From Eledone cirrhosa (lineage: Eukaryota), in the NCBI GenBank assembly GCA_964016885.1, contig OZ024747.1, positions 20,832,001 through 20,896,000 on the forward strand: a stretch of DNA of 64,000 nt, given 5' to 3'. The notes beneath the pieces were generated by a model that was not told where the DNA came from, made no database searches, and was given only the letters and a program-made list of their open reading frames with translations. Below, one piece after another: positions 44,775 to 59,892 of the stretch. Numbering within the stretch: position 1 is the stretch's first letter; the number at the start of each line of letters is the position of its first letter. The position numbers were made by a program, and so were the translations under genes.

Positions 44775-45380
44775 CAGGTCGATATAAATCTACATATTAA
44801 GTAATAGGATCGATTCTCCATTTATATCTCATTTTTTATTCCCTTCTTGAGAATAATGGGCTCTGCCAGGTTTAAGATGCACCTATCATTCATATCAAGG
44901 GTTACAGTTACATACATGATAGCTGCCCCCTCGTTATCGAGTATGGCCATTGCACAATATACCATTATTAATAATTATTAATTAATTCTATCGTGCAATG
45001 CCTGTGCGTGAAGATATTTTTTCAAGTGAGGAAAGACTGTGCACTGAGCCAATCCCACTCTCTGAGCGACAGTAGCTATAACCCGAAAAGAAGAAAAGAT
45101 CAACATCATTGGTAACTACTGAGCCACAGGTTTTATATCGGAGTTATCCCAGTTTCCTGAGTTGCCTTCTCCTAGAAGAATGCCCTGACAAAGGTTAGGG
45201 GTCCTTCACTCCCAGTGGTTTAACCGCGCGATCGGGTGTCTAGCCCAGCTATTTCTATGCCCCCGCGCATATACATACACATGCACCCATGTATATACAC
45301 ATATACATACATATGTACATGTGCATATACATATTTACACACTTTTGGATGGCCGTTGACTCTTATGTGTTCTTCCACCC
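44775..45380 (-). mobile_element. Family D non-coding retroposon-like copy (sister of family C)
   Basis: Reverse complement of 59367-59862 and 57333-57692. Contains CTAGGAGAAGGCAACTC. Confidence 0.75.
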
Positions 45381-45405
45381 TACATACATACATACATACA
45401 TACAT

Positions 45406-46012
45406 GGTGGCTGCCAACTCGTTTTCGAGTACGGCCACTACTTTATATCCATGCAGGAGAACCCCTACCGATGCGCTGAATGAGTGTGACTTTTTAGTCC
45501 AGCCAGCGACTTGAAAACTCTGGTACAAACACTATACTTGTGACAACCATTGACACATAGTGCTGGGCCCATGGTACCATGTGACGACTAGTGCAGAGAG
45601 ATCTCCAGATATAAAGCAATGCCTGTGCCGTGAAGCTTTTATAGTGAGCAAAGGCACTGCACAAAGCCAGTCCCACTCTCTTAACCAAGATGATATTTAC
45701 CAAAAAGAAGAACAAGTCAACATCATTGGATACCATCAGAGTTGCAGGTGTTATATCAGAGTTTTCCTTCTCCTAGAATTCTGCCTTGACAAAGGCTAAG
45801 GGGTCATATCTCCCAGTGATTTTGGATGGCCACTGACTCTTAAGAGCTCCTTTGCCCTTTGACAGGTTTTGTTTTTAGTCCTGCAGGATGTCCAAAGTCA
45901 CCCTCCTCACCAAGGAAACCTTGGTGGGGTTGCCAGTTTAGTCGCCAACGACCCGACCATGAGACAGGTTGTACTGGGATACATGTTACCAGTAGCACCA
46001 ACTGGTGACCTG
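45406..46012 (-). mobile_element. Family C ~605-bp non-coding element, copy 1, flanked by (CATA)n
   Basis: Four near-identical full-length copies share the same ends. The strand is inferred from the RTE-5'UTR-like GGCA..CTAGGAGAAGGAAAACTCTGA motif and the (ATGT)n tail. Confidence 0.8.
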
Positions 46013-46065
46013 ACATAATACATACATACATACATACATACATACATGCATGCATACATATATAC

Positions 46066-46336
46066 ATGTAAAACATTCCAAAAATGCTGCCTCTAATAAC
46101 TGCATATACACTTGTACAGATATAAAGCATATACACATACACACATACAATTTAAAACAGACACATCCACACATACAATAACATCCATACCTACACACAC
46201 ATGCTTGCATGCAAACATGCATACATATATACCTCGTTGATGTTGTGTAAATTCCAATGAGAGAGTCTTGTATCTATGTTAGAAACCGACTCTCTCTCTA
46301 TTGGCAAACATTTGTGAAATTATAAAACCAGAAGAA
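46066..46336 (+). mobile_element. R4/Dong family B, 3'-end-only copy
   Basis: Matches 53757-54009; (CATA)n on both sides. Confidence 0.85.
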
Positions 46337-46386
46337 CATACATACATACATACATACATACACACATACATACATACATACATACA

Positions 46387-56400: not shown

Positions 56401-57166
56401 TTACATACTATAAAAATATGCCTATATGTGCTTAAATATATCCCTCATAATTGGAAATACCCTGGAAAACATCTAGCCACAAACCACAACTTGGTACTTA
56501 CTGTTATAAAACTTTCCCATCTGTAATATCTTTGTAACACACCAAACACGAAAAGAGAAACAATAACCTCTCTACGAAGTTCTAACCTCTATTGTAGCTA
56601 TCTAGCACCTAAGAAACCTTTGAGATAAAACCCCCACTAAATCTTTCCAATGTACATAATCGATTTTCAAACCTGAAGTTGCTTCCATTTTGCACAAGTC
56701 TAATTTAGAGTTATTCTCTTTTATCTAACTTACAATCGACCACCCACCCTCAGTTTTCTCCCCTTCTATAAGAACTCGTAGAAATTTAATGCTCACATCT
56801 ATAACAAATATGTCGAACTCTCGAACTACGGAAATAACAACTTCCCCAGCGAAACCGGCATATTCGACGGCTGAAAAGGTGGATTTAACCATATTCTGTA
56901 TATTACAACTTATCACTCGGACTGAGGATTCTAGCAACTTTGGATATAAATTTTTTTTATACGAAATTCCCTACATTTTATATGTATGCATAATCTACGT
57001 GCATATAAACATGTGTGTATTTCTGTATATATATATATATATATATATATATATATATATATATATATATATATATATATATATATATATATATATATAT
57101 ATGTATATATGTGTGTGTGTGTGTGTGTGTGTGTGTGTGTGTGTGTGTGTGTGTGTGTGTGTGTGT

Positions 57167-57692
57167 GTGTTCTTCCGCCCTTTGTCAGGTTTTGTTTTTT
57201 GTCCTGCAGGGTGTCCAAAATACCCACCTCACCAAGTAAACTTGGTGGGGTTGCCGGTTTAGTCGCCGACGACCCGACCATTTGACAGGTTGTACTGGGT
57301 ACATGTTACAAGTAACACTCAAGAGTGACCGACACATAAGAGTCAACGGCCATCCAAAAGTGTGTAAATATACACATGTACCGCGCGGTTAAACCACTGG
57401 GAGTGAAGGACCCCTAGCCTTTGTCAAGGCATTCTTCTAGGAGAAGGCAACTCAGGAAACTGGGATAACTCCGATATAAAACCTGCGGCTCAGTAGTTAC
57501 CGATGATGTTGATCTTTTCTTCTTTTCGGGTTATAGCTACTGTCGCTCAGAGAGTGGGATTGGCTCAGTGCACAGTCTTTCCTCACTTGAAAAAATATCT
57601 TCACGCACAAGCATTGCACGATAGAATTAATAATTATTAATAATGGTATATCGTGCAATGGCCATACTCGATAACGAGGAGGCAGCCATCAT
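57167..57692 (+). mobile_element. Family D copy with an inverted 5' segment (57167-57333)
   Basis: 57167-57333 is the reverse complement of the C/D 5' region; 57333-57692 is the sense body. Confidence 0.78.
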
Positions 57693-58238
57693 ATATATAC
57701 ATATGTAATATATATAAATAGTGTGTGTGTGTATGTATATATATATATGTGTGTGTGCGTGTGTGTGTGTGTGTATGTGTGTGTGTGTGTGTGGGTGTGT
57801 GTGGGTGTGTGTGGGTGTGTGTGTGTGCGTGTGTGTGTGTGTGTGTGTGTATGTGTGTGTGTGTGACGCAGCACCGAAAATCCAATGAAAAGAATCTATA
57901 TTTATTGACTGTATGAATTAGAGAGATGAGTTGAGACCTGATAGCCTGATGTTTCCTGATTACTGGATTAAATGATGTGATGTGAATGGTTATCAACAAT
58001 ACAGTGCAGCATAATATGCACTATAAATTGATACGTCGCTATATGTAACCACATACACATACATACACATGCACACCCATCCGCACAGGCACACACACAC
58101 ATACATCTAAACATTTCTATTTATGTGTGTACGTATGTACGTATCTACATACATACACACATACATACATACATACATACATACATACATACATACATAC
58201 ATACATACATACATACATACATACATACATACATACAT

Positions 58239-58844
58239 GGTGGCTGCCAACTCGTTTTCGAGTACGACCACTACTTTATATCCATGTAGGAGAACCCCTA
58301 CTGATGCGCTGAACAAGTGTAACTTTTTAGTCCAGCCAGCGACTTGAAAACTCTGATACAAACACTACACTTGTGACAATTATTGACACATAGTGCTGGG
58401 CCCATGGTACCTTGTGATGACAAGTGCAGAGAGATCTCCAGATATAAAGCAATGCCTGTGCTGTGAAGTTTTTATAGTGAGCAAAGGCACTGCACAAAGC
58501 CAGTCCCACTCTCTTAACCAAGATGATATTTACCAAAAAGAAGAACAAGTCAACATCATTGGATACCATCAGGGTTGCAGGTGTTATATCAGAGTGTTCC
58601 TTCTCCTAGAATTCTGCCTTGACAATGGCTAAGGGGTCATCTCCCCCGGTGATTTTGGATGGCCATTGACTCTTAAGAGCTCCTTTGCCCTTTGACAGGT
58701 TTTGTTTTTAGTCCTGCAGGATGTCCAAAGTCACCCTCCTCACCAAGAAACCTTGGTGGGGTTGCCAATTTAGTCGCCAACGACCCGACCATGAGACAGT
58801 TTGTACTGGGATACATGTTACCAGTAGCACCAACTGGTGACCTG
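58239..58844 (-). mobile_element. Family C copy 4 (solitary)
   Basis: Near-identical to the other copies; (CATA)n flanks. Confidence 0.8.
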
Positions 58845-59366
58845 ACATACATACATACATATATACATACATACATACGTAAGGAATCGTTCTTAGATGT
58901 ACAACGCACAAATTCAACCATATTGTAGTCTAGTTTTCTTTTTCTTTTGTGTGGCTTATTCAGGTCACGATCATAAGGTCGTGCGTTCGATTCCTGCCGG
59001 CGTGTTTTGTCTTTTAAAGACCACTGGGCTCCCTGTTTAACATAAGTTATTTTTTATAGTTACCTCCCTTTTCATTTAGATTATTCAATGGATTTGTCTC
59101 TTTATAGATAAATTCGGGGTTACCTATCCTTAGAACTCTCCTATGTTGTCTAGTATCTTCACGGTGGGAAGACATTTTTATTTATATGACAGGCTGAATG
59201 AGTTGAATAACCCAACGAAACGTAAGCACTTGAACATGTCACTGTTGTAACTAAATATACTTAACTTATCCTATGGTCTGAGTGCTATAGCCCTTTATTT
59301 ATACCAAATGTGTACTACTATATGTATGTATGTATGTATGTATGTATGTATGTATGTGTATGTATA

Positions 59367-59892
59367 GGCGCTGGGATATAGAAATAGTCGGGCTAGATAC
59401 CCGATCGCGTGGTTAAACCACTGGGAGTGAAGGACCCCTAGTCTTTATCAGGGCATTCATCTAGGAGAAGGCAGCTCAGGAGACTGGGATAACTCCGACA
59501 TAAAACCTGCGGCTCAGTAGTTACCGATGATGTTGATCTTTTCTTCTTTTCTGGTTATAGCTACTGTCGCTCGGGGAGTGGGATTGGCTCAGTGCACAGT
59601 CTTTCCTCACTTTAAAAAAAATCTTCACGCACAGGCATTGCACGATATAATTAATTAATAATTATTAATAATGGTATATTGTGCAATGGCCATACTCGAT
59701 AACGAGGGGGCAGTCATCATGTATGTAACCGTAACCCTTGATATGAATCATAGGTGCATATTAAACCTGGCGGAGTCCATTATTCTCAAGAAGGGAATCA
59801 GAAATGAGATATAAATGGAGAATCGATCCTATTACTTAATATGTAGATTTATATCGACCTGGAGGCAAATTTATAACGAGGTGGCAGCTATC
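59367..59892 (+). mobile_element. Family D copy with a doubled 3' terminus, flanked by (TATG)n
   Basis: ATAACGAGG.GGCAG..ATCATGTATGT occurs at ~59699 and again at ~59873. Confidence 0.75.

Follow-up and report, generated by a model that had tools for sequence, protein, structure and literature searches.

A retroelement stack in (ACAT)n

The window analysed here is a 64,000-nucleotide stretch of contig OZ024747.1 of Eledone cirrhosa (assembly GCA_964016885.1, positions 20,832,001 to 20,896,000), and its region from 45 to 61 kb consists of retroelements stacked within (ACAT)n. Two non-coding repeat families, C (~609 bp) and D (~500 bp, three copies in the window), stand there among elements A and B, which are R4-like long interspersed nuclear elements (LINEs). 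From 44.9 to 54.0 kb the order is D-C-B-A-C-B-C-B with ACAT arrays as the only spacers, as an earlier note made from the sequence alone had described. We propose that two sister subfamilies of an autonomous LINE, which encode an apurinic/apyrimidinic-type endonuclease (APE), gave rise to C and D as non-coding copies with an internal deletion, and that the LINE protein probably copies them in trans through target-primed reverse transcription into AT-rich microsatellites. We put the probability of this reading at roughly 85%.

The stack opens on the minus strand with D copy 1 (D1, 44916..45380), an internally deleted element of LINE-Y type (LINE-Y is described below) that is 5'-truncated after 11 nt of its 5' module and holds an internal GTAT-like tract, followed by the full-length C copy 1 (45404..46014), whose sense strand is also the minus strand. 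On the plus strand come B1, a 3' fragment of B type (46068..46338, repeat families D12 and D13), and the full-length element A (46387..50610), with a stop-to-stop frame of 1174 aa at 47004-50528. The next spacer, (ACAT)17 at 50611..50674, exemplifies the shared target repeat. It precedes C copy 2 (50675..51277, minus), full length apart from a 7-bp internal deletion, and B2, a 74-nt B-type 3' fragment (51351..51424, plus), which lies tail to tail with the full-length C copy 3 (51445..52053, minus) across ~20 nt of ATAC repeat. B3 (52141..54010, plus) is a 5'-truncated B-type element with a broken frame. Beyond it lie the other two D copies, the full-length C copy 4 (58237..58846, minus) and B4 (60501..61169, plus), a B-type 3' fragment within (ACAT)n that belongs to repeat families D12-D14 and D19. 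Further repeat spacers occupy 45381-45403, 46015-46067, 46339-46386, 51280-51350, 52054-52140 and 58146-58236.

The four full-length C copies have identical ends, aligning end to end with 96% mean column identity (599 of 672 columns invariant), and every C copy in the window has (ACAT)n/(TACA)n arrays at both sides. Each copy also bears private changes, such as the deletion found only in C copy 2. The family is dispersed and is not a local tandem duplicate: the genome (3.0 Gb) contains 21,179 exact matches to a 35-mer of its 3' end, while the reversed control gave no match. The 40 best matches lie on many contigs with 98% identity to C copy 3, and the flanks of the 30 best copies are unrelated, being nearly always (ACAT)n, (AT)n or mixtures.

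Polarity was read from the truncated ends of genomic copies, the check proposed in the earlier note. In plus-strand terms of the window, the left end of C is fixed and the right end is variably cut. Among best-scoring matches to each terminal 120 nt, 39 copies were anchored at the left end, of which 14 extended over the full length and 25 stopped before the right end; 34 of the 38 anchored at the right end reached the left end, the four exceptions being a copy that lacked 47 nt, a short piece, a rearranged copy and a copy bearing an internal deletion. Across all loci fetched from the genome (numbered with the prefix L), 166 C copies with an intact 3' end were divided into 97 full-length and 69 5'-truncated copies, and 30 pieces had no 3' end, 7 of them cut by the locus edge. 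In these loci, 100 full-length copies had both flanks. Because the left end is kept and the right end is truncated, the left end is the 3' end, so that the C copies of the window are minus-strand in sense and end ...GGCAGCCACCAT. The GGCAGCCAYCAT end is the invariant 3' end of C, and truncation polarity identifies the sense strand as the one ending GGCAGCYAYCAT. On this strand, which the earlier note had also named, both C and D end in GGCAGC(C/T)A(C/T)CAT and then GTAT repeats.

Two further features of the truncated C copies were recorded. Their 5' ends are overrepresented at sense positions ~181-240 (21 of 69 truncated copies, a mild excess near ~200), and equally truncated tandem pairs occur at L054 (cut at 412 and 407) and L063 (two at 408). 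The excess or the pairs could stem from a site where the reverse transcriptase preferentially stops, from a second start site or from local duplication.

Parent LINEs and the internal deletions of C and D

The search for an autonomous LINE with the terminal sequence of C and D, which the earlier note had recommended, yielded three sister subfamilies, here called LINE-X, LINE-Y and LINE-C. They were reached with a tail pattern that kept GGCAGCCAYCAT and excluded the C and D bases upstream through two exclusions; a few of its 288 matches had coding-like sequence upstream, and a protein search from one of these led to all three. A tail-hairpin pattern with a single upstream exclusion gave 498 matches, and the 30 loci fetched from these were C or D in every case.

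LINE-X is the older subfamily, and 27 of 30 loci end ...ACTCTTGGCAGAG.TTGCAGCCATCAT (1-2 base changes allowed) and continue into AT/GTAT-rich sequence. LINE-Y is young and open-framed. Eleven of the 12 copies fetched were compared with the copy at L234 and were 98.6-99.6% identical to it, and open frames of 1206-1524 aa were present in 11 of the 12. In its 1245-aa stop-to-stop frame, Pfam placed an APE domain at residues 119-340, RVT_1 at 659-926 and three C2H2 fingers. Ten of the 12 copies end ...GTGCAATGGCCATACTCGATAACGAGGGGGCAGCCATCAT and then run into (AT)n or (GTAT)n, the same 3' tail as that of D. The 5' region of LINE-Y, ~1.1 kb long, consists mostly of simple-sequence tracts and gives the impression of holding no separate ORF1. 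LINE-C copies end in the tail of C, after the codons of the last zinc finger, and the copy at L256 spans 4073 nt with (GTAT)n at both ends.

The parent LINEs probably belong to the RTE clade. The 3' untranslated region (UTR) measures ~35 nt in LINE-X, 58 nt in LINE-C and ~470 nt, almost all of it simple repeats, in LINE-Y, so that all three have the very short or simple-repeat 3' UTR that is a trait of this clade. The parent LINEs show 27% identity over 333 aa to another fragment of the Eledone cirrhosa genome, which we take to be RTE-like. None of 120 proteins among the matches listed for LINE-Y had an informative name.

C is made of two pieces of LINE-C, its first 431 nt and, directly after them, its last 179 nt. 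Positions 1-432 of C align with L256 1515-1946, the first 432 nt of LINE-C, at 96.8%, and positions 431-608 align with L256 5410-5587, its last 178 nt, at 94.9%; the LINE-C copy at L254 shows the same collinearity at both ends. The tail piece comprises the last ~62 codons of LINE-C, including the final C2H2 finger, the stop codon and the 58-nt 3' UTR. The deletion junction can be read directly. LINE-C has ...CTTGTCATC on the 5' side and, on the 3' side, ...GGTCAC leading into ATGGTACC, and C at the junction has ...CTTGTC(A/G)TCAC leading into the same ATGGTACC. A 27-mer spanning this junction has 14,883 exact matches in the genome, on all large contigs, with none for the control. That a single junction recurs in 14,883 matches shows that C spread in its deleted form from a single origin.

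D consists of ~300 nt of the LINE-Y 5' UTR and ~60 nt of the LINE-Y 3' end. Bases ~117-423 of D match the part of the 5' UTR next to the coding frame (L235 1058-1359) at 89-92%, with 89.6% for D1, and its final 51 nt align with the 3' end of LINE-Y (L235 5421-5471) at 94-96%, with 96.1% for D1. In D copy 3 (57171-57692), the body and 3' tail lie in plus-strand sense at 57331..57692 and match the LINE-Y 5' UTR at 92.4% and its 3' end at 94.1%. The 5' 160 nt of this copy are inverted (57171..57330, minus), so that the plus strand carries the 5' module in antisense; its bases 7-148 correspond to LINE-C 1675-1532, reversed, at 88.9%. This is the 5' inversion expected from twin priming, and a C copy at L038 is likewise inverted at its 5' end.

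The earlier note had reported a common core of ~250 bp in C and D. Such a core is present, although it is ~205-230 bp long at 67-69% identity, and it derives from the homologous 5' UTR of two sister LINEs. The motif that the note had likened to an RTE 5' UTR is located in this same homologous 5' UTR of an autonomous LINE. The two families also share the ~140-nt 5' module (89%) and a ~40-nt 3' tail.

C and D thus have both termini collinear with an autonomous LINE, LINE-C and LINE-Y respectively, with the interior missing; the junction 27-mer count shows amplification of C in the deleted form, and the fixed 3' end, 5' truncation and inversion, and target duplications are traits of target-primed reverse transcription. 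A classical short interspersed nuclear element (SINE) would instead consist of a small-RNA head transcribed by RNA polymerase III, a body and a LINE-derived tail, and would be mobilised by an RTE-type LINE. The 3' tail held in common with the LINE, the high copy number and the lack of coding capacity all agree with such an origin. The head does not, since the whole 5' 431 nt of C, first bases included, is collinear with the 5' end of LINE-C, and the body of D is the LINE-Y 5' UTR. ARAGORN called no tRNA gene in 43500-61500, in agreement with the earlier remark that a tRNA head is absent, and in an Rfam scan (E<=1) no match that starts or ends inside C or D had an E-value below 0.1, the other rows in the C and D stretch being microRNA-model matches on microsatellites. 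SINE-type composites were accordingly discarded in favour of internal-deletion derivatives, and we regard a classical SINE origin as very improbable.

The D copies at 44.9 and 59.4 kb do not represent independent insertions. D copy 2 (D2, 59366..59720, plus) and D1 are the two arms of a local inverted duplication, 44759-45328 versus 59308-59877 (570 nt, 90% complementary, arms 14 kb apart), which brackets the whole stack. The adjoining 44775-44915 and 59729-59872 do not belong to the D family and are low-copy flank with 6 genome matches. The low-copy piece 59729-59894 was also tried as a candidate LINE 3' end and proved to be ordinary flank, two of its 6 genome matches lying in the window. Because D1 and D2 share the inverted duplication together with the low-copy flank, they represent one insertion that was later duplicated locally. 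At the end of this piece, ~22 nt at 59873..59894 (plus, ATAACGAGGTGGCAGCTATCAT) resemble the C and D tail and may be an extremely 5'-truncated copy of it.

This duplication, together with the equally truncated tandem C pairs at L054 and L063, speaks for a cluster formed mainly by local DNA events, such as unequal crossing-over or segmental duplication in microsatellite arrays. The C copies of the window, however, stand between different neighbours with their private changes, the 30 best genomic copies have unrelated flanks, and more than 14,000 junction-bearing copies are spread over all large contigs. We therefore consider it unlikely that local events account for most of the cluster, and retain dispersal of deleted LINE copies as the preferred reading.

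Other candidates for the partner LINE were rejected. A different LINE fragment beside the C copy at L020, presumably RTE-like, ends in ...CCCGCC and then TTAG (or CTAG, TTA or CTA) at 30 of 30 loci, and this end is unlike the C tail, so that it is not the partner; ATAG repeats often follow the end, and an AT-rich tract is present in 25 of the 30. A CR1-like fragment at L032 has a different tail and the opposite orientation. Clustering by k-mers of the microsatellite-adjoining ends in the fetched loci gave no further family with the C and D tail.

Two additional kinds of end were observed beside these families. Low-divergence short elements at L182, L199 and L186 end ...GGCAGCCATCAT and hold remnants of the last zinc-finger codons, with bodies unlike C and D; the same LINE group probably gave rise to these, too, as deleted derivatives. 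Another recurrent end, ...GGACGTAAAATGA(ATG)n, adjoins AT-type repeats at 12 junctions (e.g. L033 and L068) and may belong to a repeat-seeking family.

Target repeats and the R4-like elements

The 3' end of LINE-X, LINE-Y, LINE-C, C and D alike is a small structure of two helices, after which comes GCAGCCAYCAT. In the last ~35 nt of 7 sequences, two short helices were found with one compensatory pair each (2 in total) and 3 broken cells. All three LINE subfamilies, as well as C and D, are inserted in (AT)n, in (GTAT)n or in a repeat of mixed type. Where the flanks are not pure repeat, target duplications of 5-8 nt can be read, among them ATCTTACG at L088, ATTTGTAT at L044, ATAAGT at L079 and ATGTTG at L101. 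The earlier note had supposed that (ATGT)n tails of C and D seed the repeat; in four clear insertions, the duplication directly abuts the terminal CAT with no tail. Since no tail stands between CAT and the duplication, the flanking repeat is the target and not the product of insertion.

We propose a mechanism in which the LINE reverse transcriptase would recognise the shared 3' structure. An APE nick on the ACAT (or AT) strand would leave ...AT-3'OH or ...AC-3'OH, able to pair with the terminal ...CAU of the RNA, and cDNA synthesis would start at this nick. The pairing would also fix the orientation of the element relative to the repeat. The retained 5' UTR would act as a promoter and drive transcription, and this would account for the lack of a tRNA head. 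In view of the 3' end and the target that they share with the LINE, C and D are probably mobilised in trans by the parent protein.

Young C copies may at present be driven by an intact LINE-C that is rare, or by LINE-Y through cross-mobilisation. LINE-Y is younger and has an intact frame, and two of the differences between its tail and that of C form a compensatory pair; cross-mobilisation of C by LINE-Y would be plausible.

Element A carries RVT_1 and zf-RVT domains in Pfam with no APE domain, and a restriction-like endonuclease (RLE) motif was recognised by eye only. Its R4-like protein has a 65%-identical relative from Argonauta. All five R4-like copies in the window lie within (ACAT)n. The association with C extends beyond the window, as the earlier note had expected: R4-like coding fragments lie at most 1.1-1.5 kb from C in 25 of 106 independent loci, and the two senses are antiparallel in 23 of these, with one parallel and one mixed locus besides. 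An R4-like 3' end faces a C or D 3' end tail to tail within 150 nt at 16 of 189 such ends, and in 10 of the 16 the R4-like end begins after at most ~21 nt of repeat; in the window, 51351-51424 and C copy 3 provide an example.

The same geometry can be read as C being a plus-strand passenger of the R4-like protein, with the same (ACAT)n tail and orientation, which was the second of two models in the earlier note. Read on the plus strand, C runs in the same direction as the R4-like elements at 23 of 25 loci, and both read ...AC followed by ATAC at the right-hand junction. The plus-strand right end of C is, however, the variably truncated one and hence its 5' end, so that the polarities are opposite; both ends of C are collinear with the APE-type LINE, and its insertions have short target-site duplications. 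A likeness of the C and D ends to the R4-like elements had been seen by eye (GTGGCCG...TACTCGAAA), but local alignment against A and B on both strands remained at the level of shuffled controls in 24 of 24 comparisons (z -1.2 to 1.2). We reject the passenger model, the least probable of the alternatives and close to negligible. The notion of C as a landing pad likewise gives way, since C derives by internal deletion from an autonomous LINE of endonuclease type. The first model of the note was largely right about an RTE-type mobiliser; its sense strand and the antiparallel association with the R4-like elements also stand, and the tail-seeded repeat is not supported.

The tail-to-tail pattern fits two systems that prime on opposite strands of the repeat and reuse each other's short tails. 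If the R4-like elements prime on the strand opposite to that used by the APE-type LINE and its derivatives, C and D and the R4-like elements would always face each other and could target each other's short repeat tails, and their interleaving may result from this mutual use. We tentatively extend this to a broader picture, in which two unrelated systems, the APE-type LINE with its derivatives and the RLE-type R4/Dong elements, occupy the two strands of one tetranucleotide repeat and land in each other's residual 3' units, forming self-growing stacks in which C survives on the LINE-Y enzyme; this is possible, though we think it somewhat less likely than otherwise. If it is true, head-on, tail-to-tail stacks turn short ACAT tracts into multi-kilobase arrays of elements.

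Several points weigh against the derivation of C and D from these LINEs and against trans-mobilisation as we describe it. The tail-structure evidence is thin, resting on 7 sequences with 2 covarying pairs and 3 broken cells, and the LINE-Y tail differs from that of C at 6 of the last 35 bases. Among 150 LINE-C C-termini scored, of 46,058 first-look candidates, none lay in an open frame longer than 721 aa, and the parent of C itself may accordingly be dead. The window D copies are 8-11% diverged from LINE-Y, and the true parent of D may be an older relative with the 5' module that LINE-Y lacks. The polarity samples were not random draws. The tail-to-tail frequency is a raw count without a computed baseline, and the order of insertion is unreadable from the configurations. 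The RTE name, finally, rests on domain order, the 27% match and the published description of RTE-2_OV (see below) in place of a tree.

Other features of the window lie outside these families. A ~15-kb array of 9-mer units (AGCAAGAGT / AGCAACAGT variants) at 2200-17440 is open in several frames on both strands and yields stop-to-stop frames of 5000 aa. A near-perfect palindrome of ~115 nt (AGGAACGAGTAGGACCCCGACGGCTGAGCTCAAG... and its complement) at 55550-55665 is flanked by (TA)n; its right flank is repeated at 42796-42883 with 94% identity (family D18), and its end adjoins (TA)n at other loci (11 junctions), so that it looks like a TA-targeting foldback or an element resembling miniature inverted-repeat transposable elements. 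Pieces of a tRNA-like SINE (…GGTTAGAATGTTGGCCTCGCAATCG…GTTCGATACCC…) lie at 44430-44560 and 58960-59030, with no tRNA call by ARAGORN. Positions 63000-64000 look coding up to the window edge and by eye resemble a reverse-transcriptase fragment of another retroelement.

Comparison with known systems

The comparisons in this section draw on excerpts of the papers cited. Short internally deleted elements (SIDEs) have been described for R2 and R2/R1 (PMC3414825), and Persaeus, a deleted LINE derivative that arose from CR1-Zenon in Lepidoptera, belongs to a class that its description calls rare (PMC6740152). Like SIDEs, C and D are non-coding and join the 5' end of an autonomous LINE to its 3' end. 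SIDEs are presumed to keep the promoter or processing signals and the 3' recognition site of the parent, and to be amplified in trans. Unlike the R2 and CR1-Zenon derivatives, C and D descend from a single-frame LINE of APE type that has C2H2 fingers and probably belongs to the RTE clade; they also differ from known SIDEs in targeting AT/GTAT microsatellites and in their very high copy number (the junction has 14,883 exact matches). LINE derivatives of this deleted kind, which have been described as rare, can thus exceed their parent by orders of magnitude. The parasitism of C and D would be of an ordinary kind on an unusually large scale.

The closest description of a parent is that of RTE-2_OV, a LINE placed by its authors in the RTE clade and reported to be transcribed in the brain of Octopus vulgaris (PMC9115989). 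It has one open reading frame of 1109 aa with endonuclease, reverse transcriptase and C2H2 domains, UTRs of ~600 nt and a microsatellite that starts where the frame ends (PMC9115989). Judged by this partial description alone, LINE-Y is similar in its single frame with endonuclease, reverse transcriptase and C2H2 zinc finger, whereas it differs in frame length (1245 versus 1109 aa) and in its UTRs (~1.1 kb at the 5' end and ~0.47 kb at the 3' end, versus ~600 nt). The excerpt of that description mentions neither deleted derivatives nor a target preference (PMC9115989). The comparison ties the C and D repeat to a LINE type reported as active in octopus brain.

Microsatellite families in Lepidoptera have been traced to RTE elements (Tay et al. 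2010, PMC2887409), and an RTE insertion signature links microsatellite-like repeats at the 3' end to the target duplication's first base (PMC6007223). The LINEs found here resemble these elements, as far as the excerpts describe them, in their single frame with APE and reverse transcriptase, their very short or repeat-filled 3' UTR, their many 3' partial copies and their association with simple repeats. In those accounts the repeats are generated at the tail; here the repeat lies on both sides, and the insertions with clear duplications have no tail, which together point to the targeting of existing repeats.

Dong and other R4-clade LINEs are microsatellite-specific and fall among the RLE clades (PMC4640811). 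Elements A and B are like them, within what that excerpt covers, in having reverse transcriptase and zf-RVT, no APE and one orientation in a simple repeat. They are unrelated to C and D, do not share their ends and use the opposite strand of the repeat. For microsatellite and array biology, the window cleanly illustrates how one repeat is shared by two retroelement systems, each on its own strand.

A narrow text search of the literature found no description of the relation between C or D and a LINE. Of the 900 SINE families that a recent annotation of O. vulgaris gives as recently active, 893 are unclassified (PMC13282606). The present analysis names an origin and a likely driver for a repeat with at least 15,000-21,000 copies, and for annotation it implies that LINE-derived non-autonomous elements, and not SINEs or unknown repeats, are the proper class for C and D. 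Among known systems, their best place is with the SIDE-type derivatives, as a very abundant case whose parent is an APE-type LINE, probably of the RTE clade.

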